From an uncultured Chloroflexia bacterium (GTDB taxonomy: Bacteria; Chloroflexota; Limnocylindria; Limnocylindrales; CSP1-4), in the NCBI GenBank assembly GCA_963759495.1, contig CAVWZL010000014.1, positions 25,961 through 89,960 on the forward strand: a stretch of DNA of 64,000 bases. Direction: 5' to 3'. A model generated the notes under the pieces. It had not been told where the DNA came from, made no database searches, and saw only the letters and a list, made by a program, of their open reading frames with translations. Below, piece by piece: positions 4,809 to 36,207 of this stretch. The translations under genes were made by a program, and so were the position numbers. Each line of letters opens with the position of its first letter. Positions within the stretch are counted from its first letter, which is position 1.

Positions 4809-4826
4809 GCTGGGGAGGCGACTCCC

Positions 4827-5615: not shown

Positions 5616-5636
5616 GGGTGGGTCCTCCTGGCTGGA

Positions 5637-6485: not shown

Positions 6486-6487
6486 GC

Positions 6488-8391: not shown

Positions 8392-8415
8392 GCATGACCT
8401 CCTGTGGGTGCGGCC

Positions 8416-14955: not shown

Positions 14956-15541
14956 CGTGTCCTCCTTCGGGTCGGCGCTCGGTCGACCAGTAGCGTTCTG
15001 CGTATGTCTTCGGGGCTCCGTCGATGACCGCCCGCAGGCCGGTCGCCGGATCGCGCCAGACCTGGCCACGTGCCAGGACCGCGTCGATGAGGCCTTCCTC
15101 GAGATAGGGCGGGATCTCCCACGACCGAACCTCGATCGCCATCTGGCCGGGATAGCCGATCAGCTCCTTCACCCGGGGATCCGTGTAGTACCCGCCGACG
15201 AGCACCAGCTGGAGGGCGGACAGGTGTGCCGGCTCGTCCGCGGCGAGGGTGGCGAGCCGTGCCTCGGGGTCATCCCCGAGCTCCGGCCGCAGCGCGGCAA
15301 CGAACGGGTCGATGAGGTCGGGGCGCGCGCGGAGGACGAACGCCAGGCGGTCCTCGCTGACGATGTCGGCTGCGGACGGCATGCCGTGGGCCGCCGGGAT
15401 GAGGTGCTCGGCGATGGCGACGAAGGTGGCCCGCGCCGCCGCGTCGACCATGGCGAGCCACGGCCCGGGTGCCATGGTGTCCGTCGTGGCGACGAGCCCA
15501 CCGGTCACATCGGTCGGCGCACCGGTCTGCTGGTCGGTCAT
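14936..15541 (-). CDS. Gluconate 2-dehydrogenase subunit 3-like small subunit (partner of the GMC oxidoreductase)
   Basis: Intact 201 aa. ATG 15541 overlaps the GMC stop (ATGA). Assignment rests on size, position and general resemblance (LVLVGGYYTDPRVKELIGYPG), so it is less certain. Confidence 0.55.
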   Translation of the reverse strand: MTDQQTGAPTDVTGGLVATTDTMAPGPWLAMVDAAARATFVAIAEHLIPAAHGMPSAADIVSEDRLAFVLRARPDLIDPFVAALRPELGDDPEARLATLAADEPAHLSALQLVLVGGYYTDPRVKELIGYPGQMAIEVRSWEIPPYLEEGLIDAVLARGQVWRDPATGLRAVIDGAPKTYAERYWSTERRPEGGHDGRDGA

Positions 15542-17160: not shown

Positions 17161-17199
17161 TCCTCCGACGCGTTGTGGGGTGTCGCTGCGCGGAAGCGT

Positions 17200-17217
17200 A
17201 TAGCAAACCTTTGCTAT
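17200..17217. promoter_or_regulatory. AT-rich palindrome ATAGCAAA-CC-TTTGCTAT, LacI-type operator candidate
   Basis: Perfect 8+8 inverted repeat about 40 nt upstream of the GMC coding region. The half-site GCAAAC/GTTTGC resembles LacI/PurR-family operators. Confidence 0.45.
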
Positions 17218-17357
17218 GGCGCGTTGCAGTCCTGCTTGGAGGCCGCGGCGCGGTCGCCCCGGAACCCGTCCCGTACGTGGCCGGCGCCAGCGCCCGCCGC
17301 CGCCCAAGCTGCTCTTCCGTCGGATCCGTGCATCGGGCGTACGTTTTCGACGAGGGC

Positions 17358-17572
17358 TTGCACCATGTGCACATAGCGACGCCCGGGGCCGGCCGCGACG
17401 TCGACGACTTGCACCCGGTGCACGACCGCCGGTCGCCGGCGCTCACGAGGTTTGATCGGTGCGCCACGTGCACGTTCTCGACCTATTTCGGCGGTCCGAC
17501 GCCCGCTCAGCATTCGCTATGTGCATCCAGTGCACGGCGCCACGTGCACGGTGCTCTGGGCGGCCGGTGCAC
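17358..17572. promoter_or_regulatory. Array of four 15-bp bipartite motifs (KTGCRY-N3-GTGCAC) plus two extra GTGCAC sites
   Basis: TTGCACCATGTGCAC at 17358, TTGCACCCGGTGCAC at 17409, GTGCGCCACGTGCAC at 17459, GTGCATCCAGTGCAC at 17521 (spacing 51, 50, 62 nt). Extra GTGCAC at 17544 and 17567. Lies in the 510-bp divergent intergenic region. Confidence 0.5.
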
Positions 17573-17669
17573 GGCCGCCGCCCGGCACACCCCTGGCGCA
17601 CCCTTCCGACGCATCGTCGATAATCGATCAAACGATTCGCCTCCTCGCCGAGCCGCCCAAGGAGTCCCG

Positions 17670-18456
17670 ATGACGACGCTCGACATGTTCAGCCTCGACG
17701 GACGCGTCGCGCTCGTGACCGGTGGCGGCGGCGGGATCGGGTCGGCGCTGGCGGAGGCCCTCGCCGCAGCGGGCTGCTCGGTCGCCGTTGCCGGCAGGAC
17801 CCGCGAGCCACTCGACGCGGCCGTCGCCAGGATCGAGGCAGCCGGCGCGCGCGGAACCGCCGTCACGGCCGACGTGACGGACGAGACCGAGAGCAACCGC
17901 ATGGTGGACGAGGTCATCACCGAGCTCGGCCGCATCGACATCATCGTCAACGCCGTCGGCGGCGGCGCCGGCAAGGAGCTCCACGCCGCCGAGGCCTACC
18001 CGCGCGAGGCGTGGGACTGGATCATGGAGCTCAACGTCCGCAGCACCGTCATCCCGACGCAGGCGGTCGCTCGCCGGATGATCGAGACCGGCCAGGGCGG
18101 CATCGTGCTGAACATCTCGTCGGTCCGAGCCAACCTCGGCATCAACGCCGGCTATTCGGCCTACGTTGCGGCCAAGGGCGCCATCAGCTCGTTGACCCGG
18201 CAGTGGGCAACCGAATGGGCCAAGCACGGCATCCGGGTCAACGCGATCATGCCGACGTTCGTCGACACGCCGCAGGTCGCGATGCTGCTCGAGGACCCGG
18301 CGTTCAAGTCGAACATCGTCAACCGCATCCCGCTGGGCCGCGTCGGCGAGACCCGCGACATCGTCGGGCCTGCGATCTTCCTCGTGCTCGGACGCCGCGT
18401 CATTCGTGACCGGGCACGTCCTCACCATCGACGGCGGCCTCACCGCGACGCAGTAG
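17670..18456 (+). pseudogene. SDR family oxidoreductase, one frame change near the 3' end
   Basis: AAGGAG RBS precedes ATG 17670. Motifs VALVTGGGGGIGSALA, NAVGG, YSAYVAAKGA. The C-terminus SDAASFVTGHVLTIDGGLTATQ-TAG (18454) is readable only after a +1 shift near ~18385. Confidence 0.8.
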
Positions 18457-18465
18457 GGGAAGCCG

Positions 18466-19362
18466 ATGGACGCACCCGCCTCGATGATGGAACGCGTCAC
18501 CGACAACGTCTTCACGACGACGAAGCTGCGCGGCTGCAATCCGAGCTTCGTCACGACGTCGGACGGGGTCGTCGTCATCGACACGCCACAGCTCCCGACC
18601 CGCGCTGTCGCGATGCGCGAGGAGGCGGAGTCGCACGGCCCGATCCGCTACCTCATCAACACGGAGAACCACGTCGACCACATCTTCGGCAACTGGTGGT
18701 TCCGCGGCGCCGGTGCGGTGGTGAATCACCAGGCGCTCTGGGACATCTTCATGGACCCCAAGGCTGCACTCGACCCCTTCGACTACGCGCTCGAGGCGAT
18801 CCCCACTGACGACCCGAACGGGGCCGCGCTCATCCCCGATCGCGACGACTACTACGCGAACCTCCCCCGGGGGACGGTCGTCTTCACGGGCGACCTGACG
18901 CTGCGCGTCGGCGACCACACGTTCCACTGCCTCTGGACGCCGGGCCACACGCCAGGGCAGCTCGCGGTCCACGTCCCCGAGGAGCGGGTGGTCTTCACCG
19001 GCGACACCATCTTCTCCGGCTGCCAGACGTGGCTGATGACCTCGAACGTCGACCAGTGGATCGAGGCGCTCGAGCGGATTCGGCTGCTCGACGTCGACCA
19101 CGTTGTGCCCGGTCACGGGCCCGTCGTGACGCTCGACTACCTGCACACGCAGCGCTCGGTGTTGCTCGCCTGGAAGGCCGCCGTGGCCGACGCCGTCTCG
19201 AAGGGCTGGTCACGCGAGGAGACGATCGAGCGCGTCCGATTCGACGACGCCTTCGGCCCGGTTGACGTCGGGCAGGGCTACATGATGGATCACATCCAGA
19301 ACAACAACGCCGGCTCGCTCTGGGACAAGCTGACCGCCACGGGCTACTCGAAGGGGCGCTGA
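18466..19362 (+). CDS. MBL-fold metallo-hydrolase
   Basis: Intact 298 aa. Motifs NTENHVDH (HxHxDH) and TPGHTPG, then VVPGHGP. Confidence 0.85.
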   Translation: MDAPASMMERVTDNVFTTTKLRGCNPSFVTTSDGVVVIDTPQLPTRAVAMREEAESHGPIRYLINTENHVDHIFGNWWFRGAGAVVNHQALWDIFMDPKAALDPFDYALEAIPTDDPNGAALIPDRDDYYANLPRGTVVFTGDLTLRVGDHTFHCLWTPGHTPGQLAVHVPEERVVFTGDTIFSGCQTWLMTSNVDQWIEALERIRLLDVDHVVPGHGPVVTLDYLHTQRSVLLAWKAAVADAVSKGWSREETIERVRFDDAFGPVDVGQGYMMDHIQNNNAGSLWDKLTATGYSKGR

Positions 19363-19528
19363 AAAGGGTCGATCGGAACGTCGTCGTCGAGTCGCTCGAC
19401 GAGCGCGCGCAGCCGCTCACGTTGACCTGTGTTCGATTCGATGTACGGCCGATGGTCACGAATGTGCCCACCGTTCGCGGAGCCTGACAGACTGAGGGTC
19501 GCATGCAGCCGGAACGGGAGGTGCAAGG

Positions 19529-19936
19529 GTGAGCAGATCTGGGTCGGTGGTCGTCCTTCATCCCGGGGGGACACAGGCGCCGGCGATGTCCGACGCCGAA
19601 CGGTACGACCAGTTCACGCGCGAAGGCCGCTGGGCCGCCTGGATCCGCAACGACGCGGGCGACACCAGCGGCTGGCACCACCACGCCGACAACGTGACGT
19701 ACGTCTACGTGAGCCGCGGATCGATCACGTTCGAGTTCGGCCGGGACGGAGCGGAGCGCGTCGTCGCACAGCCCGGCGACTTCGTGATCGTCCCGGCCCA
19801 CACGCTCCACCGGGAGATCACGGGGGATGGCTCCGACCTCGAGGCGTTCGTGATCCGCGCGGGCGGTGAGCCGGAACGCGTCGACGCCGACGGCCCCGAA
19901 TTACACGCCGGAGGGCGGTCCGAACCAGGTACCTAG
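19529..19936 (+). CDS. Cupin domain protein
   Basis: GGGAGG RBS precedes GTG 19529. Motifs GWHHHADNVTYVYVSRGSITFEFG and GDFVIVPAHTLHREI (cupin motifs 1 and 2). The 3' end overlaps the convergent gene by 36 nt. Confidence 0.65.
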   Translation: MSRSGSVVVLHPGGTQAPAMSDAERYDQFTREGRWAAWIRNDAGDTSGWHHHADNVTYVYVSRGSITFEFGRDGAERVVAQPGDFVIVPAHTLHREITGDGSDLEAFVIRAGGEPERVDADGPELHAGGRSEPGT

Positions 19937-21400
19937 CGCCTCGGCGAGCCCGGGATCACCGCCGTCGCCGACCCAGGCGACATATCCGTCCGGCCGAACC
20001 AGCACCGCACCCGGAGCCTCGACCACGCCGAGCACAGGAAGCTCCCACGGACCGGCGTACATGGCGTCGACCGCCTGCACGCGATCTGCCCAGGGGCCGA
20101 TGTCGGGGCGATCGGCCTGGTCGAACCCGAGGAGCACCGGCCGGGCGCGATGCAACAGGGAGAACACGCGCCGCGGACCGTCGGGGGTAGCCAGGTCAAG
20201 GTCGGGCATGCGGCGCCCGAGGAGCGGGTGACCCTCGCCGAGTCCGTACCGGATATCGAGGCCGGCCATCATCGCGGAGAGTCGCCTGCGGGCGTCGTCG
20301 ACCTCGAGGAGCTCCGTGATGACCTCACCGAGGCCCTTCGTCCGTTCGTCGGGGCGGCGAAGGGCGACCAGCGCCATGGTGTTCCGCAGCACGCGAGCGC
20401 CGACCGGGTGTCGCTCGGCGTGATACGTGTCGAGGAGGCGTTCGGGGGACGTCCCGTTCACGACCTGGGCCAGCTTCCAGCCCAGGTTCATCGCATCCTG
20501 CACACCCGTGTTGAGGCCCTGGCCACCATCCGGGGCATGCACATGGGCGGCGTCGCCGGCCAGGAGGACTCGTCCCGTTCGATAGGTGGCTGCCTGTCGG
20601 GTGGTGTCGGTGAACCGGGAGATCCAGGTGGGGCTGTGGACCCCGAAGTCGGTCCCGTAGACGGCGATGAGTCGCTCGCGGAGGTCCTCGAGGGTCGGCT
20701 CGGCAGTGGCACCCACGCCATCCTCGGTCAGCATGACGCCGACGGTCCCGCCCTTCCCGTAGACCACCTTGCCGTCCTTGATCTCGTATGCCACCTTGCC
20801 GAGCGCATGCGTGCCGGATGCCGTGCGGCGCATGCCCAGCTCCGGCTCTTCGGCCATCTCGACCTGGGCGATCAGGCTGCTCGTCGTGGGATCCCAGCCC
20901 GGAAACTCGATGCCGGCGACCTTGCGGACCAGGCTCCGACCTCCGTCGCAGCCGACGAGGTAGTGCGCGCGCAGTGACTCGCCAGCCGACAGCTCGACGT
21001 CGACGCCCGTGTCGTCCTGGGTGAACCCCGCTACGTCGATGCCGTAGCGGATCGGCACGCCGAGCTCGGCCACCCAGCCGGCGAGGATGCGTTCGATGTG
21101 GTTTTGCCAGAGACCGAGCGTGTAGGGATGCCGGGTTGGAACATCGCTGATGTCCAGGCGAGCCCCGGCGAACGCCCCGACCTGCGTCATCTGTCCCTCT
21201 GCGAGGAACCGGTCCGCGATCCCGCGCTGGTCGAGAACCTCGATGGTGCGCGAGAGCAGGCCACCCGCACGCGACCCGGCAAGGTCCTGACTGGCCCGCC
21301 GCTCGACGATAGCGACGTCCACGCCCGCCAGCGCCAGCTCGCCGGCGAGCATGAGGCCTGTCGGACCGGCCCCCGCGATCATGACCCCGTGCCCCTTCAT
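19901..21400 (-). CDS. FAD-dependent aromatic-ring monooxygenase (PheA/TfdB-type, Rox-like)
   Basis: GGAGG lies 6 nt upstream of ATG 21400. Motifs VMIAGAGPTGLMLAGELALAG, CDGGRSLVR, LAGDAAHVHAPDGGQGLNTGVQDAMNLGWKLA. Confidence 0.85.
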   Translation of the reverse strand: MKGHGVMIAGAGPTGLMLAGELALAGVDVAIVERRASQDLAGSRAGGLLSRTIEVLDQRGIADRFLAEGQMTQVGAFAGARLDISDVPTRHPYTLGLWQNHIERILAGWVAELGVPIRYGIDVAGFTQDDTGVDVELSAGESLRAHYLVGCDGGRSLVRKVAGIEFPGWDPTTSSLIAQVEMAEEPELGMRRTASGTHALGKVAYEIKDGKVVYGKGGTVGVMLTEDGVGATAEPTLEDLRERLIAVYGTDFGVHSPTWISRFTDTTRQAATYRTGRVLLAGDAAHVHAPDGGQGLNTGVQDAMNLGWKLAQVVNGTSPERLLDTYHAERHPVGARVLRNTMALVALRRPDERTKGLGEVITELLEVDDARRRLSAMMAGLDIRYGLGEGHPLLGRRMPDLDLATPDGPRRVFSLLHRARPVLLGFDQADRPDIGPWADRVQAVDAMYAGPWELPVLGVVEAPGAVLVRPDGYVAWVGDGGDPGLAEALGTWFGPPSGV

Positions 21401-21535
21401 GGCATGCCTCCGTTTCGTTGCCTGCTGGCCTGGCGACATTGGACAGCATCGCGCAGGGACGGTCGGCGTCGTCGGATCCAGCGCTCGCTTGCGCCGATCG
21501 ATGAAGAACCGTAAAGACGGTCGGAGGGGTACGGC

Positions 21536-22297
21536 TTACCAGCGCTTCCGTGCCTCGATGAGGAAACGGCGCGAGTAGGCCACGAACCGACCGTCAGCTT
21601 CAATGCGATCGTGGAGGAGCAGCAGGCGGTCCCGGTACTTCTGAACGCTGAAATCCGGAACGAACCAGATGACCTTCCGCAAGAAGTACACCATCGCACC
21701 GACGTCGAAGAACTCCATTCGTAGGTCCGCTGTCCGGAGATCGACGACCTCCAGGCCCGCAGCCTCCGCCCTGGTCCTCGCCAGCTCGGGTTCGCGGCCG
21801 GTCCCACCCAGGGGCTGCGCGCCCAGAAAGAAGTCGTAGATCTCGTGCCCGCTGTCGGGTCCGACCTGCTGCGAGACGTACGTCCCACCGGGAGAGAGCA
21901 CGCGGCCGATGTCGTCCCAGTACGCCGTCACCGGATGACGGCTCGTGACGAGGTCGAAGGTGCCGTCAGCGAACGGCAACGGGGGCCTGTCCTCATCTGC
22001 GACCACGACGACGCCCTTTGCCCGCAGGTTGTGCTGCGCACGAGCGATGTTCGGCGGCCAGGACTCGGTCGCCACCATCGCCTTCGCGGCGCGCTGCTCG
22101 ATCCCGGCAAGAACCTCGCCACCGCCGGTCTGAATGTCGAGGCTGATTTCGGCCCGGCCAACGCGCTCGCCCATCAGCCGCTGGTAGGCCCACGGCGGCC
22201 TCTCCTCGGCGGCGCGGCCGTCCAGCCAGGAGAAGTCCCAGCCGGTGACATCGGCGCTCTCCGCTTCTGCCACCAGGTCCTCGAAGCTCCGGTTCAT
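21536..22297 (-). CDS. Class I SAM-dependent methyltransferase
   Basis: ATG 22297 (MNRSFEDLV). Motif I-like LDIQTGGGEVL, and LSPGGTYV. The upstream part of ORF 21536..22606 is a shadow extension. Confidence 0.7.
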   Translation of the reverse strand: MNRSFEDLVAEAESADVTGWDFSWLDGRAAEERPPWAYQRLMGERVGRAEISLDIQTGGGEVLAGIEQRAAKAMVATESWPPNIARAQHNLRAKGVVVVADEDRPPLPFADGTFDLVTSRHPVTAYWDDIGRVLSPGGTYVSQQVGPDSGHEIYDFFLGAQPLGGTGREPELARTRAEAAGLEVVDLRTADLRMEFFDVGAMVYFLRKVIWFVPDFSVQKYRDRLLLLHDRIEADGRFVAYSRRFLIEARKRW

Positions 22298-22331
22298 CGG
22301 GAAATCGTCACATGGGTGCGTGCGTGCGGCG

Positions 22332-22961
22332 CTATGCGCGACCGGCGGCCGTCTCATCCTCGCGGGTTCGGCCGGCCAGCTGGATGAGGTCCTCGTGAAG
22401 CTCGAACCAGATGCCGTGGTAGCTGTCCACCCGCGGTGACGCGACGTATTTGCCATCCCCAGCCTGCGCGCGTTCGAGCGCCCGGGTGAGCCGGGGTCGG
22501 TAGCCGCGAAGGCGTGGGCTCGCCGGCTCGAGCTCGGACAGCCACGCGGAGGCGTCCTCGTGGAGTGCCGCCAGGTCGGCGAGCACGCGCTGGTCGTACT
22601 CGGCATCGCTGTGGTCGTTGATGGCGGGCTCGCCCTCCCCCGGCTTGAGCTGCCACGCCGTCACGGTCTCCTTCATGCGGTGGTCGAGCGGCAGGAAGCC
22701 GTCGAGCGCCAGGTTTGCCGCATCGAGCCCCCACGCGTCGCGGTCTGCGGCCAGGAGCTCCGTGGCTCGCGTCTTGCCCGCGTCGCTGAGCCGGTACGCC
22801 CCGGCCACCGTCCCAGCCACACCATCGACCACGAGCTGATCGAGCAGACGCTGGACGACATCGGGCGTCGAGCCGACCGCATCTGCAACGTTCGCGGTGG
22901 TCGCAAAGCCCTTCGTCGCCACGATTCGAATGCACTCATCGAGCGTCGCGACCCGGGCCAA
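22332..22961 (-). CDS. Hypothetical protein with winged-helix-like N-terminus, coupled to the short PPDK-like gene
   Basis: Contains IVATKGFATTANVADAVGSTPDVVQRLLDQLVVDGV. Start uncertain: TTG 22961, or an ATGA-overlap start at ~22994 that is in another frame. Confidence 0.5.
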   Translation of the reverse strand: MARVATLDECIRIVATKGFATTANVADAVGSTPDVVQRLLDQLVVDGVAGTVAGAYRLSDAGKTRATELLAADRDAWGLDAANLALDGFLPLDHRMKETVTAWQLKPGEGEPAINDHSDAEYDQRVLADLAALHEDASAWLSELEPASPRLRGYRPRLTRALERAQAGDGKYVASPRVDSYHGIWFELHEDLIQLAGRTREDETAAGRA

Positions 22962-22992
22962 GGCGGGTTCCGCCGGTGCGGCCGCCTCAGCG

Positions 22993-24468
22993 TCATCGGC
23001 GCTGTCCGATCTCGATCCCCGCGTCGGCGGCCCACTCGAGCAGGGTCCGTGCCTCGGGCACGACCTCGCTGCCGCCGGGAATCGCACCGTCGAAGACCTC
23101 GCCCGAGGAGCCGTCGATCGAGATGACGGCTCCCTCGAGGAGGGTCCGATCCCCGATCAGGACGGATCCGTCACGCACCGCCAGCCGGGCAGCGCCGACG
23201 ACCGCGGGAATGCCCCAGCCGCGCGCCACGACAGCCGCATGGCTTGCCAACCCGCCGCGAGCGGTCAGGATCCCGGCCGCCCTGGCCATCCCGTGCACGT
23301 CGTCCGGGGAGGTCTCCGACCGCACCAGGATCACCGTCCGACCTGCCTCCGCTGCCCGAACGGCGGCGTCCGGGGTCGTCACGATCTCGCCGGTTGCCAC
23401 ACCCGGAGAGGCGGCGAGCCCGCTCACGAGCGGCAGCAGGTAGCTGCTTCGGCCGGTCGTCTTCCGGGGCGGATCGACGAGCAGGTGCGCAACGCGTTCG
23501 ACCGCCTGCGCGCGCGTCAGGGGAAACTCCGGGTCCTCAGCCATGTCCCGCGCGATCCGGAGCGCGGCCTGCGGACTCCGCTTCCCGACGCGGACCTGCA
23601 GCATCCAGAGCCGTCCGCGTTCGATCGTGAACTCGATATCGCACAGGTCGGCGTAGTGGCGTTCGAGCCGCGTGGCAGCGTCCTCCAGCTGCGCGGCCAC
23701 GTCCGGCAGGCGCTCGGCGAGCGTATTGATGGGCTGCGTCTGGTGCGTGCCCGCGACCACGTCTTCGCCCTGCGCATCGAACAGGACGTCCCCATAGAGG
23801 CTGGCCTCGCCCGTCGCCGGGTTCCGCGTGAAGACGACGCCGGTGCCGGAGTCCTCGCCGAGATTGCCGAACACCATCGCCTGGACGGTGACCGCTGTCC
23901 CGATGTCGTCCTGGATGCCCTCGCGCTGCCGGTACGCGATGGCGCGGTCGCTGTTCCAGGAGCGGAACACCGCCTCGATCGCGAGCCGGAGCTGCTGCCA
24001 TGGATCCTCGGGCACCTCGCCCACGCCGACGATCGCCTGGAACGACGTCCGGAAGCGGTCGTGGCAGTCCCGAGCGAACGCCTCGTTCCCCGACGCGGCG
24101 GCAAGGCCGACGGTCGTCGCCTCGTTGAGACCGAGGTTGAGGATCGTGTCCATCATCCCGGGCATCGACACAGGCGCCCCGGACCGGACACTGACGAGGA
24201 GCGGATCGGCGGGATCGCCAAACCGGCGGCCCACGGCGGCCTCCATCTCGGCCATCCGCTCGCGCAGCTCGGCATCGAGATCGTCGGGCCAGCCGCCCGC
24301 GAGGAACGCACGGCACACCTGGGTCGTGACCGCAAATCCGGGCGGGACCGGCAGACGCAGATCCGGGCCGAGCATCACGCCGAGGTTCGCCGCCTTGCCG
24401 CCGACGAGCGCCTTGACCTCGTCGAGCGGCATGTCGTGGGGGTGGTCCAGCGGATAGGTGTGGTTCAT
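22993..24468 (-). CDS. Pyruvate phosphate dikinase-like protein: ATP-grasp plus phosphohistidine swivel domain only, no PEP/pyruvate TIM-barrel domain
   Basis: Intact 491 aa. Motifs VGGKAANLGVM, LLVSVRSGAPVSMPGMMDTILNLG, TGVVFTRNPATGE, DIEFTIERGRLWMLQVR, GGLASHAAVVARGWGIPAVVG. Stops about 60 aa after the catalytic His motif. Confidence 0.8.
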   Translation of the reverse strand: MNHTYPLDHPHDMPLDEVKALVGGKAANLGVMLGPDLRLPVPPGFAVTTQVCRAFLAGGWPDDLDAELRERMAEMEAAVGRRFGDPADPLLVSVRSGAPVSMPGMMDTILNLGLNEATTVGLAAASGNEAFARDCHDRFRTSFQAIVGVGEVPEDPWQQLRLAIEAVFRSWNSDRAIAYRQREGIQDDIGTAVTVQAMVFGNLGEDSGTGVVFTRNPATGEASLYGDVLFDAQGEDVVAGTHQTQPINTLAERLPDVAAQLEDAATRLERHYADLCDIEFTIERGRLWMLQVRVGKRSPQAALRIARDMAEDPEFPLTRAQAVERVAHLLVDPPRKTTGRSSYLLPLVSGLAASPGVATGEIVTTPDAAVRAAEAGRTVILVRSETSPDDVHGMARAAGILTARGGLASHAAVVARGWGIPAVVGAARLAVRDGSVLIGDRTLLEGAVISIDGSSGEVFDGAIPGGSEVVPEARTLLEWAADAGIEIGQRR

Positions 24469-26784
24469 CGCGGGGTCACCTCGAGGAGCGCCGCTGCTGG
24501 GTCGCGGGCGGGATCGTTGAGCGCGCGCCAGACGCGCTCAGGGGTCAGGGGCAGCTCGCGGATCACGACGCCGGTCGCATCGCGAACGGCGGCCGCGACG
24601 GCCGGAGCGACGCACAGCAGGGCCCCCTCGCTCATCCCCTTCGAGCCATACGGGCCCGGCCCGTCGCCGTTCTCGACGATCTCGCTCTCCATCGAGCGCG
24701 GCAGGTCCATGCTCGTCGGGATTCGATAGTCGATCGCGCCGAGGTTCCGGATGCGGCCGGCGTCGTCGAAGATGTAGTGCTCCATGAGGGTGTGGCCGAG
24801 CCCCATGACGGCCGCGCCCTCGTCCTGGCCGCGGACCTGGGTGGGATTGAGCGCGCGGCCCACGTCCGACACCGTGACGTGTCGCTCGACCGTGACGTCG
24901 CCCGTGTCGCGTGTCGACCGAGACCTCGACGGCCGTGCAGTTGAACTCGTAGAAGGCCGTCGTGCCACCGAGCGGGTGCTCCGGCATGGCCTCCTTGCGC
25001 ATCTCGCCGACACCGATGACCTCGCCGCCGAGCCGCCCGAGACCCCGAGTCAGCACATCGAGGATGGGGAGCGTCCGGTCACGGATCCGCACCTCGCCGG
25101 CGTCGACAATGACCTCCGACTCGTCCACGTCCTCGAGCCGGGCGGCCATCGTCCGCAGCTTGTCCTGCACCGCGCGGCAGCCGAGGAGGACCGCATTGCC
25201 CATCAACACCGACGAGCGACTCGCGGACGTCTGCTGGTCATATGGGACGACCGCCGTGTCGCCCATGACGACCGTGACCCACTCGACCGGTGCGCCGAGC
25301 TCGCGGGCCGCGATCTGGGCAAAGATCGTCCGGGCCCCCTGGCCCATGTCGGACGTGCCCGCGTAGATCACGACGCTCCCGTCGGCGAGGAGCCGCACGG
25401 TCGAATACGAGAGTCCGGTCGTTGGGCCCGCCTTCAGACCGACCGCCAGACCGCGGCCGCGACCCGGGGGCAGCGGCGTTCCCCAGCCGATGCGCGCCGC
25501 GGCTCGCTCGACCGTCTGATGCCACGCGCCGTCGGCCGGGATGTCCCCGGGGAGGAAGTCGTCGCCGTGCCGGGCCAGGTTGCGCAGCCGCAGCTCGACC
25601 GGGTCGATCCCGAGCCGCCGGGCCGCCTCGTCCATGTTCGATTCGACCGCCCAGATCTGCTGGGGATTGCCGAAGCCACGGAACGCGGTGGACGGGACGG
25701 TGTGGGACAGCACGCTGCGCGCCACGATCCGGACCGCCGGCACGTTGTACGGCCCGGCTGAGGTGTAGCTGCCCTTCGCCACGGTCCGGTCGGCGATGTC
25801 GGCGTAGGCACCGATCAGGTAGCTCGCGTCGACGTCGCGAAACACGAGCGTGCCGTCATGCCGGAACCCGGACCGGACGCGGACCTGGGCCGCGCCCCGA
25901 CGAACGGCCTGGAACGTCTCCTCGAGCGTGAGCACGAGCCGAACCGGCCGCCCCAGACGCAGGGCCATGAACGCCAGCAGTGGCTCGTACTTCGCGTGCT
26001 GCTTGCCACCGAAGCCGCCACCCGGGTCGGGCGCGAAGACGCGGACCTTCGACAGCGGCAGCGAGAGCAGCGACGCAATGACGCGCTGGAGCCAGTTCGG
26101 GTGCTGGATCGTGCTCCAGATCGCGATCCCGTCGGCGTCGGGGGCGGCCATGAACGCATGGGGTTCGATCGCGAACTGGGTCACCATCGGGAACACGTGC
26201 GTGTTCTCGACGACGACCTCCGCCCGGGCTTCGGCGGCCTCGATATCGCCCCAGCCGTACCGGTGCTCCCTGAGGATGTTGCGATCGGCGAATGAGTCGC
26301 CCTCGCGCCCCGCGGGATCCTGCACGAGCGGCGCCGCGGGATCCAGGGAGGCTGCGAGGGTCGTCACGGCCGGCAGCTCCTCGTACTCGACACGCACGAG
26401 CCCGGCCGCCTCCTCGGCGAGATCGCGCGTCTCGGCCGCGACCGCGGCGACGGGATCACCGTGGTACTTCGTCTCGCCCACAGCGAGCACGGGGCGGTCG
26501 CGGAGCTGCGGGCCGAACCGTGGCATCGGCGAAGGGAGCTCGTCGGGCGTCATGACGAGTCGAACGCCGGGAAGCGCGAGCGCAGGGGACGCATCGATTG
26601 CGATGATCCGGGCCCGCGCGACCGGCACGGTCACGAGCTTGACCTGGAGCACGTCCTCGAGGCGGAGGTCCGCCACGTAGGCCTGCCGGCCCGTGACCCG
26701 GTCGCGACCGCCGACGCGGGCCGGGTCGCCGATGAGTCCCTGCCCGTGGCCATTGCCGTGGCCGTTGCGTTCGTCGCCCGTCAC
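24465..26784 (-). pseudogene. Xanthine dehydrogenase-family molybdopterin-binding large subunit, one frame change
   Basis: Motifs DPGGGFGGKQ, TAFRGFGNPQQIWAVESNMD, SDMGQGARTIFAQIAA. One base is missing near ~24910. The C-terminus (TGDVTVERHVTVSDVGRALNP..) lies in ORF 24465..25013. The stop overlaps the next start. Confidence 0.85.
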
Positions 26785-27344
26785 TGGGGCGCCTCGCGGG
26801 CGTCGGGTCGGGAAGCCATGTCGACGGCGACGGGCTCTCGGGCTGGGCGATCAGCCGGCTCCGGGTGGCCGTCGCGTCCACCCTCTGCCGCGAGCAGCAC
26901 GGCCTCGATGATCTGCTCGTACCCGGCACAGCGGCACAGGTTCCCCGCGAGCCCCTCCTCGACCTCTTCCCGGGAGGGCCGGGGCTTCAGCGAGAGAAGC
27001 GCGTGCGCCGAGACGACCTGGCCCGGGATGCAGAACCCGCACTGGGCGGCGCCGGTATCGAGGAACGCCTGCTGGACCCGGCTCAACTGGCCGTCCCCCG
27101 CAAGCCCCTCCACGGTTGTGATCGAGCGGCCGTCCATCTCGGCGGCAAGCGCGAGACAGGAGTCGACGCTCAGCCCGTCGACCAGCACGGTGCACGCGCC
27201 GCACTCCCCCACGAGGCAGCACTCCTTCGTGCCGGTCAGGCCGAGATCCTCGCGCAGGACGTCGAGCAGCGTGTGATGTGGCGCGACGGTGATCGACCGC
27301 GGGCGGCCGTTGACCGAGAGCTCGAGCGGGACGCCCGCCGTCAC
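26781..27344 (-). CDS. (2Fe-2S)-binding small subunit (CoxS/XdhC-type)
   Basis: GTG 27344 overlaps the upstream stop. Motifs GECGACTVLVDG, QCGFCIPG, NLCRCAGY. Confidence 0.85.
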   Translation of the reverse strand: MTAGVPLELSVNGRPRSITVAPHHTLLDVLREDLGLTGTKECCLVGECGACTVLVDGLSVDSCLALAAEMDGRSITTVEGLAGDGQLSRVQQAFLDTGAAQCGFCIPGQVVSAHALLSLKPRPSREEVEEGLAGNLCRCAGYEQIIEAVLLAAEGGRDGHPEPADRPAREPVAVDMASRPDAREAPQ

Positions 27345-28207
27345 GCCGCCCCCTCCGCGAGCCGCCGAACCGCCGTGTCGATCCCGCGAAGCGCGAGCAC
27401 CCGCAGCATTGCGAGACGGTATTCCGGCGTGGCACGCATCGAGGTGGGCGAAGGACGGGCCTCGTCGAGGAGCGCATCGAGCACTCCGGCACGGGCGGTA
27501 TCGGAAGCTCCGGGATCCGCCAGCACGCCACTGCGGTCCTCCCGCACCACGGGTCGCGGGCCGACGCTCCCGTAGCCAAGCCGCATGACGCCATCGGACC
27601 CCACCGCGCACGCGAGCGTGACGGAAGCCAGGTCGTGGCCGCGCCGCCGTGTCCGCCGCAGGTGCACCGAGCCCAGCGGCGGCCGGATGAGCGGCAGCTC
27701 GATCGCGGTTACGAGCTCGTCCGCGGCCATCGTCGTCACCCCGGACCGGACGAACCATTCGTCGATCGGAATGCGCCGCGTGCCGCCGGGTCCTGCCACG
27801 ACGACCTCGGCGCCATAGACGAGCAAGGCCGGCGCGGTGTCCGCTGCCGGTGACGCGTTGCAGATGTTGCCGGCGAGCGTGGCCCGGTTCCTGATCTGCA
27901 CCGACCCGACAACGGCCGCCGACTCGGCGAGCGCGGTGTACTCGCGCCGGATCAGGGGATGCGCCGCGATGTCGGTCATCGTCGTCCGTGCGCCGATCAC
28001 GAGCCGGTCGCCGACGACGAGGATGGTGTCGTCCAGCTCGTCGATCCCCTTGACATCGACGACGAGCTCGGGCCGCATCGAGCCGTCGCGCAGCCGGATG
28101 ATGAGGTCGGTGCCTCCCGCCAACAGACGGGCGCCCGTTCCATGCGCGGCGAGGATGGCATGGAGCTCCGTCAGGCTCGATGGACGCTGGTACGCGAACG
28201 GACGCAC
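27341..28207 (-). CDS. FAD-binding medium subunit of molybdopterin dehydrogenase (CoxM-type)
   Basis: GTG 28207 (VRPFAYQRPSSLTEL). Motifs LAGGTDLIIRL and IRNRATLAGNICNASPAAD. About 288 aa with no obvious extra-cluster insertion. Confidence 0.85.
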   Translation of the reverse strand: MRPFAYQRPSSLTELHAILAAHGTGARLLAGGTDLIIRLRDGSMRPELVVDVKGIDELDDTILVVGDRLVIGARTTMTDIAAHPLIRREYTALAESAAVVGSVQIRNRATLAGNICNASPAADTAPALLVYGAEVVVAGPGGTRRIPIDEWFVRSGVTTMAADELVTAIELPLIRPPLGSVHLRRTRRRGHDLASVTLACAVGSDGVMRLGYGSVGPRPVVREDRSGVLADPGASDTARAGVLDALLDEARPSPTSMRATPEYRLAMLRVLALRGIDTAVRRLAEGAA

Positions 28208-28211
28208 GCGG

Positions 28212-28880
28212 CTACCCGACGTCGCCGTCCGGGAGGCGTCGGGCGAGGTTCCCGGCGACCTCCGCGAAATGCCGTTCGAGCGCGGCGACGAGTGCGTCAG
28301 CGTCACGCTCACGGATCGCATCGAGGATCGGCATGTGCAGGTCCGCCGACCAGCGCGGGTCCGCCCCGGGGACGACCAGCGTCAGGTACGTCCGCGAGAA
28401 CGGCTCGAGCGACCTCCAGACCTTCGCGAGGGTCCCGTTGGCGGCGATCTCGATGATCCGGGCGTGAAAGCGGGCGTCAGCCTCGGCAACACGATGCGCG
28501 TTGCCGTCGTCGGCCGCGTCGTGCATCGCGTCCATGTGCCCGGTGAGCTCGTCGATGTTCGCGTCGGTCAGCCTCGGGACGGCAAGACGCGCGCCGAGCG
28601 CCTCGAGCGCGGACCGAACGGCGTATGCCTCGAGCAGCTCGTCCCGCGTCGGTCGGCGGACGCGTGCCCCGCGGAACGGCGTGATCTCGACGACCCCGAG
28701 TGCCTCGAGCCCACGGAGTGCCTCGCGGACCGGCGCCTGGCTCGTGCCCAGCTCGCGCGCGACCTGCGTTTCGACGATACGCGAGTCCGGCGCGTACCGG
28801 CCGCTGAAGATCTCCTCGAGGAGTCGCTCCTTCACCTGGTCAGCGAGGACGCTCCGGGCGAGGATCCTGACGCTTTCCAC
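28212..28880 (-). CDS. GntR family transcriptional regulator (FadR/FCD-type)
   Basis: GTG 28880. wHTH VETQVARELGTSQAPVREALRGLEALGVVE and a helical FCD-like C-terminus. Intact 222 aa. Confidence 0.85.
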   Translation of the reverse strand: MESVRILARSVLADQVKERLLEEIFSGRYAPDSRIVETQVARELGTSQAPVREALRGLEALGVVEITPFRGARVRRPTRDELLEAYAVRSALEALGARLAVPRLTDANIDELTGHMDAMHDAADDGNAHRVAEADARFHARIIEIAANGTLAKVWRSLEPFSRTYLTLVVPGADPRWSADLHMPILDAIRERDADALVAALERHFAEVAGNLARRLPDGDVG

Positions 28881-28888
28881 GGCCCGGC

Positions 28889-30754
28889 TCAGGTCCCGAT
28901 CGGCGTGCTGGTCGCCGCGGCGGCGGTGCCCGGGGCGGCGCCTGCGCTCGCGCTCCCGTCGCGCAGGATCTCGACCGTCCCGGCGGACCCGTCGACGCGC
29001 ACCCGATCCCCCGTCGCGATCCGGTGCGTCGCAACCGACGTCCCGATGACGGCCGGGATCCCGAACTCACGGGCGAGGACCGCCGGGTGCGAGGTGGTAC
29101 CGCCGGTGTCCGTCACGAGCGCCGCGATCTTGGTGAAGAGCACGACCCACGCCGGGTTGGTCATCTGACAGACGAGGATGTCGCCCTCGGCCACCTCGTC
29201 GAACTCGTCCACGGTCCGCACGACGCGCGCGATGCCTTCGACGACACCGGGTGATGCGCCGATGCCGCTGACCTGGAGCTGGTCCTCCGACTGCTGCTGA
29301 TAGAAGCGGTCGGGATAGCCCCAGTTCACGAGGTACGGGAAGGCGAGCTGAGAGGGCGTCGCCGTCCCGACCCAGTTGCGCGGCCGGAGCTTCGTCGACG
29401 CCTCGCGCTCGGCACGACGCGCGGCCACGATGCCGCGGCCATCGACGCCCTCCGCGTCGCCGATGAGCATCCGGAGCTCGTTGTAGCGCAGGTACATCAC
29501 GTCGTCGGGCTGGTCCAGCCGGCCCGCCTCGACGAGCTTTCGGCCGATCGCCATGAGCACGAGCCGGACATGCGCGTTCGCACCCTGGTCGATGTAGAAG
29601 TGGTGGTCGGGCGTGAGCGGCGCCATCCGCAGGTTGATCTCGTTCGCGGCGCGCATCTCCTCCAACGCGTCACCTTCGAGCCCGTCGAGGATCTCGCTCG
29701 ATGCCGCCTCGATGTCGCTGCGCATCGTCTCGATCGCGCTCGGGTAGTCGTAGTCGGTCTCCAGATAGCCGCGGATGAGGTCGAGGACCGGCTCGAGCTC
29801 CTCGCGCACCGTCGGGAAGATGAACTCGTGGCTCCAGACGGCGTGCCAGCCGAACTCGCGCTGGTACGGCTCGATCCGCTCGTCGATGAACCGGCGGCCC
29901 CGCTCGGAATCCCGAAGGGCCGCAGCGATCGCGTCTGCGTCGCCGGCCCCGAAGGCTGCTCGCAGCTCGGCGTCGTCGCGCACCTCGTTCTTCATCCGCC
30001 AGAGCGCCTCGATCGAGTCCCAGTTCCGATCGGAGGCGGAGTTCTGGAGGCGCCCGAGCAGCTCCTCGTCGATCGTGCCGCGCGTCTTCTCCATCACCGC
30101 CCGCAGGTTGAGCGTGGCCGACAGCTGCGCGAAGTTGAGCATCCAGTGGATCTTCCAGTGCCGATCGTGGACGTCGATTGCGTCCTCGAGCAGGCAGGCG
30201 ACCTCGGCCAGCGACATGCCGTCGGCCTCGTCCAGACGCGCCTCGAGGAAGTCGAAGTTGCGCTGCATCTCGGGCACGAGGCGGTCGTGCCACCAGTCCG
30301 CGAACTGGCGGCCGTAGACGGGCAGGACGGTGTCGAGGTACGCGCCCATCTTCGACCCGAACTCGGCGTCCTTCGGGACGCGGGCACCGTACCGGGCGCT
30401 GTACTCGGTCCCTTCGATGCGCACATCCGGATCGGCGGGCACGGCGGTTGTGTAGACGTAGCCGTTGACGTTCTTGGCGAGCCAGTCCACCGCGAACGGT
30501 GTTCCGAACCGACGGAACATGTGGTCGCAGCTCAGCCACCAGCCACCGATGTCGAAGAACATCGGGCTGACCGGGTGCGGGATGTGCAGGTCGTCGTAGA
30601 CCCAGAAGAAGTCCTTCTCGGCGTCCGATTCCCACGTCACGGGGAACGTCTCGTCGCCGAGGAACTGGCCGAGGATCTCCTCGCTCGCTGCCACGGACCG
30701 GTCCTCCACGATGTCGCCTGGCCACGCCGTTGCGTCGGGGGGTCTATCGATCAT
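28889..30754 (-). CDS. PEP-utilising-enzyme mobile (swivel His) domain protein with an unassigned ~480-aa N-terminal domain
   Basis: Intact 621 aa. C-terminus GIGASPGVVEGIARVV..LVCQMTNPAWVVLFTKIAALVTDTGGTTSHPAVLAREFGIPAVIG. No GGKxxNLG ATP-grasp motif seen in the N-terminal part. Confidence 0.75.
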   Translation of the reverse strand: MIDRPPDATAWPGDIVEDRSVAASEEILGQFLGDETFPVTWESDAEKDFFWVYDDLHIPHPVSPMFFDIGGWWLSCDHMFRRFGTPFAVDWLAKNVNGYVYTTAVPADPDVRIEGTEYSARYGARVPKDAEFGSKMGAYLDTVLPVYGRQFADWWHDRLVPEMQRNFDFLEARLDEADGMSLAEVACLLEDAIDVHDRHWKIHWMLNFAQLSATLNLRAVMEKTRGTIDEELLGRLQNSASDRNWDSIEALWRMKNEVRDDAELRAAFGAGDADAIAAALRDSERGRRFIDERIEPYQREFGWHAVWSHEFIFPTVREELEPVLDLIRGYLETDYDYPSAIETMRSDIEAASSEILDGLEGDALEEMRAANEINLRMAPLTPDHHFYIDQGANAHVRLVLMAIGRKLVEAGRLDQPDDVMYLRYNELRMLIGDAEGVDGRGIVAARRAEREASTKLRPRNWVGTATPSQLAFPYLVNWGYPDRFYQQQSEDQLQVSGIGASPGVVEGIARVVRTVDEFDEVAEGDILVCQMTNPAWVVLFTKIAALVTDTGGTTSHPAVLAREFGIPAVIGTSVATHRIATGDRVRVDGSAGTVEILRDGSASAGAAPGTAAAATSTPIGT

Positions 30755-30758
30755 CGAT
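30746..30758. promoter_or_regulatory. 13-bp palindrome ATCGAT-C-ATCGAT spanning the start codon of the 621-aa gene
   Basis: Perfect odd palindrome, AT-rich relative to its surroundings. Lies in or next to the 48-bp divergent gap between 30754 (-) and 30803 (+). Confidence 0.3.
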
Positions 30759-30802
30759 TATGATGCCTGCGCCCAGACGCTGCGAGCGACGAGGAGACCG
30801 AG

Positions 30803-31913
30803 GTGATCGCGCCCACGCACGAGGAGCTGATCGACAGCCCGATGCTGCGGACCGCGCGCAGCGGCCCCACGGACTACTGGAACGACTCGTGCGCGATCGA
30901 CGAGCTGGCCTACGCGGTGGCCCGGGGCGCGACGGGCGCGACCTCGAACCCGAGCATCGTCCACGAGGTCCTTGGCAAGGAGAAGGCGCTACTGGACGCC
31001 GCGGATCCAGGAGCTTGCCGCTGCGGATCCGAGCGCCACGGAGACCGATCTCACCTGGGCCGTCGTCGAGGAGATGGCCGTGCGCGGCGCCGCGATCCTG
31101 CAGCCCGTCTTCGAGCGCGAGGGCGGCCGAAAGGGGCGGCTCTCGCTGCAGACGAATCCCGCCAACTACCCGAACGCCGAGCGGATGCTCGAGCAGGGCC
31201 GTCGCTTCGCCACGCTCGCCCCGAACATGCAGGTCAAGTTCCCGGCCACACGCGCGGGCCTCGAAGCGATCGAGACCGCCACGGCCGAGGGGATCAGCAT
31301 CAACGCGACCGTGTCCTTCACGGTGTCGCAGGCCCTGGCGGTCGCCGAGGCCGTGGAGCGAGGTCTTGCGAGGTTCGAGGCGAATGGCGGCGATCCCGCG
31401 ACGGTACGGCCGGTGTGCACGCTGATGGTCGGGCGGCTCGACGACTGGCTGCGGGTCCTGGCCGAGCGCGATGACGTGGCGGTCGATCCCGATGCCCTCA
31501 ACTGGGCCGGGATCGCGGCCTTCAAGCGTGCCTACGCCCTGTACGGGGAGCGCGGGTACCGGACGCGCATGCTCGCGGCGGCGTACCGGCATCGGCTGCA
31601 CTGGACCGAGCTCGTCGGCGGCGACATCGTCATGACGATGACCCACGCCTGGCAGGCCCGCTTCAACGCGAGCGGCATCAACCCCGAGCCACGGATCGAG
31701 GTCCCGGTCCCTCCCCGCATCGTCGACGAGCTGCTGGCCCGGTTCCCCGACTTCGCGCGGGCGTATGAGCCCGACGGCCTGGCCGTTGACGAGTTCGATG
31801 GCTACGGCGCCACGGTCCGGACGCTGCGCGGGTTCATCGCCTCGTACCACGACCTGATCGGCGCCGTACGCGACCTCGTCCTGCCAGACCCGGACGTGCG
31901 CCGGGGCGGGTAG
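30803..31913 (+). pseudogene. tal: Transaldolase (long type), one frame change
   Basis: GAGGAG RBS precedes GTG 30803. TDYWNDSCAIDELAYAVARGATGATSNPSIV, then from ~30990 ORF 30972..31913 (LSLQTNPANYPN, VKFPATRAGLEAIE, ISINATVSF). Confidence 0.8.
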
Positions 31914-31928: not shown

Positions 31929-32595
31929 TCAGGCCTTGGCGGCGGCCGCCTCGCGGGCCTTCTCCCAGTCCGCCTTGAACTGCGTGATGCCCGAGTCGGT
32001 CAGCGGGTGGTGGACCATCTGCTTCAGGATCTTGAAGGGCAACGTTGCGACATGCGCGCCGGCGAGCGCCGCCTGCGTCATATGCAGCGGGTTCCGGATC
32101 GAGGCGGCAAGCACCTCGGACTCGATGTCGTGCAGCGCGAAGATCTCGGCCAGCTCGCGGATGATGATCATCCCGTCCTGGTTGATGTCGTCGAGCCGCC
32201 CGATGAAGGGGCTGATGAGGCTCGCGCCGGCCTTGGCCGCCAGGAGACCCTGGTTCGTCGAGAAGATCAGCGTGCAGTTCGTCTTGATCCCCTCGTCCGC
32301 GAACCGGCTGATCGCCTCGAGCCCGTTCTCGCTCATCGCGACCTTGACCACGATGTTGGGGGCGATCTTCGCGAAGCGCGCGGCCCTCGTTCAGCATGCC
32401 TTCGACGTCGTCGGCGACGACCTCGGCCGAAACGGGTCCGGGCGTGATCGAGCAGACCTGCCGGAGGATGTCTTCGTACGAGGAACCGCTCGTCTTCGCG
32501 TAGAGCGACGGGTTCGTGGTGACGCCGTCAACGACGCCCCACCGGACGGCGGTGCGGATCTCTTCGAGATCCGCGGTGTCAAGGAAGATCTTCAT
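31929..32595 (-). pseudogene. Short-type transaldolase / fructose-6-phosphate aldolase family, one frame change
   Basis: [31 protein letters not shown] (ORF 31834..32595), then from ~32375 ORF 31929..32351 ([31 protein letters not shown]). Confidence 0.8.

Positions 32596-34493: not shown

Positions 34494-36207
<1,714 letters not shown>

Follow-up and report, generated by a model that had tools for sequence, protein, structure and literature searches.

The DNA analysed here is a stretch of 64,000 nucleotides from an uncultured Chloroflexia bacterium of the order Limnocylindrales (contig CAVWZL010000014.1), called the window below, with a G+C content of about 71%. After repair of frameshifts its minus strand carries, from position 30754 down to 22332, an operon of six genes. 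These encode the three subunits of a molybdenum enzyme of the xanthine dehydrogenase (XDH) family, a GntR-type regulator, and two proteins built from domains of pyruvate phosphate dikinase (PPDK) and of other enzymes that use phosphoenolpyruvate (PEP). On balance we lean towards reading this locus as a GntR-controlled catabolic operon, in which the XDH-family enzyme is joined with a two-protein dikinase that would act on a small molecule by the mechanism proposed below.

Genes of the cluster and frameshifts in the window

The genes are listed in Table 1. A preliminary description of the sequence had reported a run of minus-strand genes with tight junctions, and a check of coordinates and codons bears this out. 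The motifs cited there are all present, and the Pfam profile scan proposed there recovered each named domain. The number of genes is six, however, and not the seven described, because open reading frames (ORFs) of 491 and about 210 residues are two frames of one gene of about 711 residues. In order, the junctions are gaps of 8 nt and 4 nt, followed by start/stop overlaps. The GTG start of the small subunit overlaps the stop of the flavin adenine dinucleotide (FAD) subunit (GTGA), the next overlap is again GTGA, and the ATG of the ATP-loading gene overlaps the stop of the molybdenum subunit (ATGA). The last overlap is identical in L003, the related locus used for several of the comparisons below. 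The start of the FAD subunit was set by tblastn against L003 and a codon check. The GntR gene product probably regulates the operon. Over positions 21400-31200, a promoter scan gave no promoter-like site and a terminator scan gave one terminator-like site, outside the cluster; both scans are uninformative at 71% G+C.

Table 1. Genes of the cluster and the divergent neighbouring gene, with the matches on which each assignment is based.
Feature	Position	Strand	Basis
Substrate/His ('H-type') dikinase component, 621 aa	28889..30754	-	Pfam PEP-utilizers, residues 522-592
FadR-type GntR regulator, 222 aa	28212..28880	-	Pfam GntR + FCD
FAD-binding (CoxM-like) XDH-family subunit, 288 aa, GTG start	27341..28207	-	Pfam FAD_binding_5 + CO_deh_flav_C
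Two-[2Fe-2S] small subunit, 187 aa, GTG start	26781..27344	-	Pfam Fer2 + Fer2_2
Molybdopterin large subunit, ~772 aa repaired	24465..26784	-	Pfam hammerhead + MoCoBD_1 + MoCoBD_2
ATP-loading component (VadK-type truncated PPDK + ~208-aa domain), ~711 aa repaired	22332..24468	-	PPDK_N + PEP-utilizers
Divergent transaldolase-family gene, ~365 aa	30803..31895	+	Pfam TAL_FSA; tblastn, two frames

Two of the genes are interrupted. The molybdenum subunit had been described as a single ORF, but it is split between two frames: positions 25-217 of the MoCoBD_2 profile match in ORF 24538-26784 and positions 213-283 in ORF 24465-25013. DNA alignment with relatives places one extra A near 24908 (24905-24911), and a one-base deletion gives an ORF of 772 residues that is 80% identical to its L003 counterpart. 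The protein of about 210 residues, previously taken as a separate gene, is in this lineage the fused C-terminal part of the ATP-loading protein. Its ORF shares a 95-nt overlap with that of 491 residues, and relatives have an undivided protein of 709-715 residues in their place; by tblastn, residues 1-486 and 502-709 of such a relative fall in neighbouring frames of the window. Removal of any single base in 22993-23020 yields an ORF of 711 residues, collinear with the relative at 69% identity.

Genes outside the cluster are affected in the same way. pyrG (CTP synthase, 34574-36207, minus strand) runs through three reading frames, which amounts to two frameshifts, and two transaldolase-family genes, one at 31965-32595 (minus strand) and the divergent one of Table 1, occupy two frames each, the frameshift in the divergent gene lying near 30972-30988. 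Counted together, the window has no fewer than six single-base frameshifts within some 14 kb. This is typical of an unpolished long-read assembly, and readings based on ORFs should allow for it. Of 49 relatives, 39 have the N- and C-terminal parts of the ATP-loading gene in a single frame; the ten with a split gene are without exception titled 'uncultured Chloroflexia MFD', presumably a long-read project for metagenome-assembled genomes (MAGs), and the relatives from other projects in the set are intact. Since the essential pyrG is frameshifted in the same window, and since the relatives with split genes all carry that one title, the frameshifts of the cluster are most likely assembly errors. 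The state of pyrG is also the reason why a reading of the cluster as pseudogenes was rejected.

The two proposed dikinase components

The 621-aa protein had been described as having a C-terminal PEP-utiliser swivel domain and an unassigned N-terminus. The swivel domain is confirmed, with the catalytic histidine at His556 (codon 29087-29089) in the motif TDTGGTTSHPAVLAREFG (GGTTSH, of the Ser-His kind), which is retained in all 76 copies found across relatives. The N-terminus, on the other hand, can now be assigned. It has a precomputed Pfam match to PF27448 (Rph_4th). The NCBIfam models PRK08296.1-5 align with nearly the full length of the protein below cut-off, and residues 160-600 match RedH, PigC and rifampin phosphotransferase (RPH) in their C-terminal halves, far below the cut-offs of those models. 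The PRK08296 score is 183 against a cut-off of 578, so that the protein belongs to a distinct subfamily. Its best sequence match in the PDB is Listeria RPH, residues 681-866. An AlphaFold2 model, built from a shallow alignment of sequences 80-90% identical and used for fold search only, gave significant Foldseek matches in the PDB to six RPH entries and to nothing else (E 7e-12 to 3e-7), with alignments of about 470 columns at 20-21% identity. For comparison, HpeH is reported to have about 20% identity to the same RPH entry over a similar length (PMC12167813). Judged by these profile matches and by the predicted fold, the N-terminus is a rifampin-binding-like, all-helical substrate domain of the RPH/PpsA/CreH/HpeH family, and the whole protein is predicted to be built like PpsA, CreH and HpeH, which are the substrate/His components of two-component dikinases.

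Full-length homologues of the protein are also found in archaeal MAGs, with 42% identity in Zestosphaera and 32% in Bathyarchaeia/Nitrososphaeria; the H-type component is therefore not confined to bacteria.

The likeness to PpsAB of Thauera, CreHI of Corynebacterium and HpeHI of Rhodococcus lies in the order of the domains, a rifampin-binding-like one and then a C-terminal swivel domain whose GGxTSH motif contains Ser-His, and in the presence of a separate ATP-grasp-containing protein that supplies ATP. In the known systems the ATP subunit is an ATP-grasp-only protein of about 270-370 residues, whereas here it has about 711 residues, with a swivel histidine of its own and a winged-helix/helical domain; and the enzymes that accompany the known dikinases are carboxylases or others outside the XDH family.

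The first 490 or so residues of the ATP-loading protein score 506.5 bits with NCBIfam NF004531, passing the curated cut-off of 456. We take this model to correspond to the Rv1127c type of Mycobacterium tuberculosis. The swivel histidine is His410 (codon 23239-23241), in GGLASHAAVVARG, and it is retained in 49 copies, every copy found across relatives. The L003 orthologue aligns to true PPDKs with about 400 bits over residues 133-481, which cover the ATP-grasp and His domains. PEP-utilizers_C (PF02896) has no match in any protein of the cluster in the Pfam scan. The preliminary account of this part as a PPDK ATP-grasp and swivel His domain lacking the PEP/pyruvate barrel was thus accurate, PPDK_N and PEP-utilizers being found and PF02896 not. 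What that account overlooked is that, by its sequence, it is a truncated PPDK of the VadK/Rv1127c type.

The C-terminal domain of about 208 residues (22332-22958) matches no Pfam family above threshold. It is 35% identical (E 1e-32) to stand-alone proteins of about 200 residues from plasmids of Mycobacterium avium and Diaphorobacter, and these are encoded directly beside VadK-type genes. A homologue in M. branderi is annotated as a MarR-family regulator. The AlphaFold2 model of the domain (mean confidence, pLDDT, 93.5) consists of a winged helix followed by a helical bundle. A fold search with this model gave no PDB match below E 0.001; the best was at E 0.0095, and the best-fitting winged helix-turn-helix matches span about 70-90 columns. 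As these matches are so short, the earlier term 'winged-helix-like' is fair for the first third of the domain, the remainder being a helical bundle by model and fold search.

VadK of M. tuberculosis (Rv1127c), likewise a truncated PPDK, phosphorylates itself on His422, and Rv1126c, the partner encoded in its operon, had to be removed by a 2 M NaCl wash in purification (PMC13400623). The protein described here shares with VadK the ATP-grasp and central His domains and the lack of a PEP/pyruvate barrel. Its C-terminal domain is a candidate counterpart of Rv1126c, to which it is likened by description, not by sequence. The two proteins differ in that this putative partner is fused to the kinase here, and in their setting: VadK is encoded beside prpR/prpDC and is reported to regulate the methylcitrate cycle, whereas the gene here shares its operon with the genes for an XDH-family enzyme and an H-type component. 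Among the neighbours scanned, from 15.5 to 36 kb of the window, there are no prpC/prpD-like genes.

An ATP-grasp-only gene is present in 52 of the loci found outside the Limnocylindria. Within the Limnocylindria (40-41 loci with an ATP-grasp match) and in the 64-kb window, the same queries match the VadK-type gene alone, in its ATP-grasp region, and an ATP-grasp-only PPDK_N protein of about 270-370 residues was not found in the window or in the matching related loci. Because ATP-grasp queries match nothing else there, the VadK-type protein appears to occupy the place of the ATP-loading subunit.

Comparable parts occur elsewhere. A VadK-type gene and its partner of about 200 residues lie within 8 kb of genes for PEP-utilizing enzymes on plasmids of M. 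avium, M. branderi, Diaphorobacter, Rhodococcus pyridinivorans and R. oxybenzonivorans; one Rhodococcus locus is without such a PEP-utilizing enzyme gene. Both Rhodococcus clusters add a biotin carboxylase and a phosphatase, recalling the Hpe pathway. These clusters (L172, R. pyridinivorans pA, 4196-16501; L173, R. oxybenzonivorans pRB98, 4086-16241) encode a swivel-only 'PEP-utilizing enzyme' (183-238 aa), a hypothetical protein of 525 residues and an AMP-binding protein, besides a homologue of the VadK partner (about 202 aa), a VadK-type PPDK of 579 residues, the biotin carboxylase with carboxyltransferase, a thiolase, a tyrosine-type phosphatase and an SRPBCC protein. They look like a ketone-carboxylating pathway of the Hpe/Acv kind, with a kinase assembled from VadK-type parts.

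The molybdenum enzyme and its linkage to the dikinase genes

The domain set of a three-subunit enzyme of the XDH and carbon monoxide dehydrogenase (CODH) family is complete by Pfam, in the case of the large subunit after the one-base repair. The large subunit has the motifs GGGFGGKQ, FRGFGNPQ and GMSEGA. The closest solved relative of the intact L003 large subunit is the alpha subunit of 4-hydroxybenzoyl-CoA reductase (4-HBCR; PDB 1rm6_A, 342 bits), with quinoline oxidoreductase at 250 bits. The specific function is less easily read. All NCBIfam equivalog models tried (xanthine DH, 4-HBCR, CODH, aldehyde oxidoreductases) score far under cut-off: TIGR03194 gives 311 bits with the frameshifted ORF of the window and 440 with the intact L003 orthologue, against a cut-off of 995; TIGR03195 gives 121 bits against 405; and with the small subunit the NCBIfam models for XdhC, HcrC and the glyceraldehyde-DH gamma subunit are all below cut-off.

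4-HBCR of Thauera aromatica (HcrABC, PDB 1rm6) is similar in having three subunits and the closest solved large subunit, and it acts on a phenolic compound in a pathway that opens with phenylphosphate synthase. The FAD subunit here has 288 residues and two cysteines only, and must therefore lack the 4Fe-4S loop of the 4-HBCR beta subunit that defines HcrB; moreover, there are no CoA-ligase or carboxylase genes in the cluster. A bona fide 4-hydroxybenzoyl-CoA reductase was rejected on the missing 4Fe-4S insert and the equivalog scores. Xanthine dehydrogenase proper was also rejected, as the models for XdhA/B/C and PucCDE are under cut-off and GGGFGGKQ has a Gln. We take the residue following GGGFGGK to be the substrate-binding Glu in bovine XDH.

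The survey of genomes covered the 80 loci closest to the 621-aa protein (66-85% identity). Nearly all are MAGs labelled Limnocylindria, Limnocylindrales, Chloroflexota or 'uncultured Chloroflexia', with few labelled otherwise. Forty-six related loci, with at least 9.5 kb downstream of the gene of about 600 codons, are informative. All 46 have the FAD and FeS subunits together with the N- and C-terminal parts of the VadK-type gene; the molybdenum subunit is present in 45 and the GntR gene in 38. The linkage is kept despite inversions and relocations (L002, L034, L052, L070, L082-L084). One of these loci, L002, has a second XDH-family cluster at 15636-20559, about 4 kb from the dikinase gene, with FAD, FeS and split molybdenum subunits, CoxG/SRPBCC, ABM and cupin genes.

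Since the whole region is syntenic in the Limnocylindria, the search was widened beyond the class, taking distant contexts from a metagenome scan with distant homologues and from plasmid records. Of 30 loci with H-type homologues of 45-75% identity, 26 have an XDH large subunit within as much of the flank as is available. The cultured species Thermomicrobium roseum (DSM 5159) carries on its megaplasmid an H-type gene, 48.8% identical, that is linked to XDH genes, in the order GntR, cyclase-family, PEP/pyruvate-binding (ATP-grasp) protein, hypothetical, FAD subunit, FAH, ABM, H-type, Mo, FeS; its ATP-grasp protein has 323 residues. In a soil clade with H-type proteins at about 60% identity the order is H-type, GntR, cyclase, a PPDK_N-only protein of 273 residues, FAD, Mo, FeS, FAH, cyclase and histidine phosphatase; a protein at this level of identity is labelled Acidimicrobiia. 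The GntR gene is thus found in T. roseum and in the soil clades as well. The XDH large subunits of these distant clades are about 33-38% identical to that of the window. The preliminary description had suggested a survey of co-localisation, and the outcome is as it anticipated: the H-type gene, XDH-family genes and the gene of an ATP-grasp protein occur together, in other phyla too. The linkage of the dikinase pair with the XDH genes is strong.

On the same T. roseum megaplasmid, a Tm-1-like ATP-binding protein (UPF0261) and a phosphoenolpyruvate-hydrolase-like protein (PF09370) are encoded just upstream of GntR, after an ABC transporter (L165, 4490-6593).

A conserved protein of 295 residues (L003, 12500-13387) is encoded between the GntR and FAD genes in 37 of the 46 relatives and is absent from the window. 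It adjoins the ATP-grasp-only gene in distant loci (among L086, L088, L094, L097, L100, L135 and L153) and could be an additional subunit, either of the dikinase or of the pathway. It has no Pfam, NCBIfam or PDB match, and its profile does not match the DUF7065 proteins of about 300 residues found beside H-type genes in Diaphorobacter and M. avium. Profile-profile comparison of the VadK C-domain, the 295-aa protein and a T. roseum protein of 205 residues gave no homology (probability at most 0.2%), and these three accessory proteins are therefore not versions of one third subunit. The 205-aa protein was also considered as an HpdA-like SRPBCC subunit, and rejected, its only match being to DUF4202 and below threshold.

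The divergent transaldolase-family gene, present in 23 of the 46 informative relatives, is of uncertain membership in the system. Its L003 orthologue scores about 109 bits with the best NCBIfam transaldolase model, the cut-off of which is 367 bits. Homologues in the transaldolase/FSA family that are 34-36% identical are encoded close to distant H-type genes on metagenome contigs of low G+C content (L095-L097, L153). The family has no obvious role in a hydroxy-aromatic pathway. Downstream of the cluster the same strand encodes a class I methyltransferase (21536-22297), the gene of which starts 34 nt past the last gene of the operon, and next an FAD-dependent aromatic-ring hydroxylase (19901-21439); further downstream in the region 15538-22297 come the genes for a metallo-beta-lactamase-fold protein, an SDR and a GMC oxidoreductase. 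The genes that follow the cluster differ in relatives, L003 for example having a 202-aa protein and a Fic protein, and the metallo-beta-lactamase-fold gene is syntenic with relatives.

Proposed mechanism, alternatives and significance

The preliminary description stated that no characterised pathway has this pairing. One precedent, however, has been published, namely the 3hpd cluster of Ensifer adhaerens HP1. When its XDH-family 3-hydroxypyridine dehydrogenase (HpdA1-4) was produced in a heterologous host, 3-hydroxypyridine was converted only if orf9 ('pyruvate-phosphate dikinase') and orf10 ('PEP-utilizing protein mobile subunit') were expressed as well, and knock-out of either abolished growth; the authors left the role of the two proteins open (bioRxiv 10.1101/2020.01.08.898148). 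The mechanism of two-component dikinases has been established for PpsAB and HpeHI (PMC12167813). Since HpdA needs orf9 and orf10, and since that mechanism is established, the statement is outdated. By published description, the 3hpd cluster resembles the one here in having an XDH-family Mo/FeS/FAD enzyme beside PPDK-like and PEP-utiliser genes, with a GntR gene in the cluster. The differences are that 3hpd has a separate fourth subunit of the SRPBCC type (HpdA3) and the maleamate genes hpdBCDE, and that its hosts are Proteobacteria and Actinobacteria, as against Chloroflexota here. Among the genes of the cluster and the neighbours scanned there is no SRPBCC protein, 2,5-dihydroxypyridine dioxygenase, deformylase, amidase or maleate isomerase. 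Matches on Variovorax and Rhizobium plasmids were tried as relatives of 3hpd and found to be unrelated (a broken RPH-like gene, an Hpe/Acv-type cluster).

The proposal, made in the preliminary description, of a split dikinase that has the N-terminus of the 621-aa protein as its substrate module and works with the molybdenum hydroxylase is, by architecture and linkage, the best-supported reading of the cluster. The identities of the domains, the order of the genes, their translational-coupling overlaps and the conserved linkage are shown here; that the two proteins work together we infer, as we do the chemistry and the class of substrate. The 621-aa protein would hold a small-molecule substrate in its rifampin-binding-like domain and bear the swivelling His556, and the protein of about 711 residues would provide the ATP-grasp site. 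The beta-phosphate of ATP would pass to the histidine and from there to a hydroxyl group of the substrate, which may be phenolic, enolic or that of a hydroxy-N-heteroaromatic compound, giving AMP, Pi and a phospho-ester. The molybdenum enzyme might then act on the phospho-ester; or else the dikinase might phosphorylate the hydroxylated product of the molybdenum enzyme. Because the ATP-loading protein has a catalytic histidine of its own, two loading routes are possible: phosphate could reach His556 straight from ATP bound in trans, or through His410 in a His-to-His relay.

Several observations weigh against this proposal. The cluster is known here from sequence alone, and no substrate can be named. 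The AlphaFold2 model of the 621-aa protein has a mean pLDDT of 60, and residues 1-144 are unreliable. If ATP is held in trans, the swivel domain of the ATP-loading protein itself is not needed. VadK of M. tuberculosis is reported to act as a regulatory kinase, binding the methylcitrate-cycle enzymes PrpC and PrpD, and not within a small-molecule dikinase (PMC13400623), and the 3hpd study saw no phosphorylated intermediate (bioRxiv 10.1101/2020.01.08.898148). As to linkage, the wider region, with pyrG and the transaldolase genes, is syntenic within the Limnocylindria, and for this reason conservation within the class is by itself weak evidence of coupling. Further out, where H-type homologues are 35-45% identical, XDH genes are nearby in just 3 of 12 loci. 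Finally, the coupling may not reflect a single conserved reaction, because the linked XDH lineages are only about 33% identical to each other.

Other explanations are each less well supported than a small-molecule dikinase paired with the molybdenum enzyme. The VadK-type protein could be a regulatory histidine kinase that modulates the molybdenum enzyme, the 621-aa protein or expression, its winged-helix domain binding DNA or a partner, while the 621-aa protein is loaded by an ATP-grasp subunit encoded elsewhere. This is possible, though we think it unlikely. It agrees with the passing of the NF004531 cut-off, with the swivel His410 of the protein itself, with the behaviour of M. tuberculosis VadK, which autophosphorylates, binds PrpC and PrpD and is described as a regulator (PMC13400623), and with a fused domain that opens with a winged helix and has a MarR-annotated homologue in M. 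branderi. The subunit encoded elsewhere is harder to accommodate: sister clades have an ATP-grasp-only gene in the operon, yet none lies within 10 kb in the related loci or anywhere in the 64-kb window. In addition, the start of the gene is translationally coupled to the stop of the molybdenum subunit, VadK-type genes recur beside PEP-utilizing enzyme genes in unrelated catabolic clusters, and Foldseek support for a DNA-binding fold is weak (the same best E of 0.0095, over some 70-90 columns).

The dikinase might instead target the molybdenum enzyme itself, its cofactor or its maturation, and be kept by different XDH lineages for that reason. HpdA is inactive without orf9 and orf10 although 2,5-dihydroxypyridine is the sole intermediate seen, the H-type subfamily is linked to XDH large subunits as dissimilar as noted above, and M. 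tuberculosis VadK does bind enzymes. However, the 621-aa protein is homologous over about 470 columns to the small-molecule-binding and swivel domains of RPH, it stands in the family of the phenol-phosphorylating HpeH, PpsA and CreH, and dikinases of this type occur in other clusters without XDH genes, all of which makes a protein or cofactor target quite improbable. Least probable by far is that the linkage is inherited gene order without function, or that the cluster is decaying and carries real pseudogene lesions. There are indeed two frameshifts within the cluster, the wider region is syntenic in the class, and the 295-aa gene of 37 of the 46 relatives is missing here. Against this, the same window has two frameshifts in the essential pyrG and one in each transaldolase-family gene; split genes are confined to the 'uncultured Chloroflexia MFD' relatives, those from other projects being intact; single-base repairs restore full-length proteins 69-80% identical to relatives; and the linkage recurs in other phyla with other gene orders.

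It is worth adding a more general suggestion, which we put forward only as a speculation with little probability on its side. VadK-type truncated PPDKs and their partner of about 200 residues may in general be the ATP-loading modules of multi-component small-molecule dikinases, handing phosphate from their swivel histidine to a second one on the substrate-binding protein in a His-to-His relay like that of the phosphotransferase system (PTS), and the phospho-ester may be the sole form that the XDH enzyme accepts here. If so, this would explain the requirement for orf9 and orf10 in the degradation of 3-hydroxypyridine, and would point to a catalytic role in the ancestry of M. tuberculosis VadK.

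The dikinase family, the VadK type and the pairing of an XDH enzyme with a dikinase have each been published singly. What is new is a VadK-type loader that is fused to its partner domain, replaces the ATP-grasp subunit and is fixed beside an XDH-family enzyme across a major soil lineage. The pairing is no curiosity of one plasmid: it is fixed in the abundant soil Limnocylindria and occurs also in Acidimicrobiia-like soil clades and in T. roseum. As the last of these is a cultured thermophile, the system is experimentally approachable. The occurrence of the VadK type beside substrate-binding dikinase components in several catabolic clusters gives it a candidate role, concrete and testable, outside mycobacterial regulation. 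The 3-hydroxypyridine study raised the question of why some XDH-family hydroxylases need an ATP-driven dikinase. If phosphorylation proves to be an obligatory activation for a class of molybdenum hydroxylases, the annotation of such clusters would change, and so would the reconstruction of pathways for the degradation of hydroxy-aromatic compounds and N-heterocycles.

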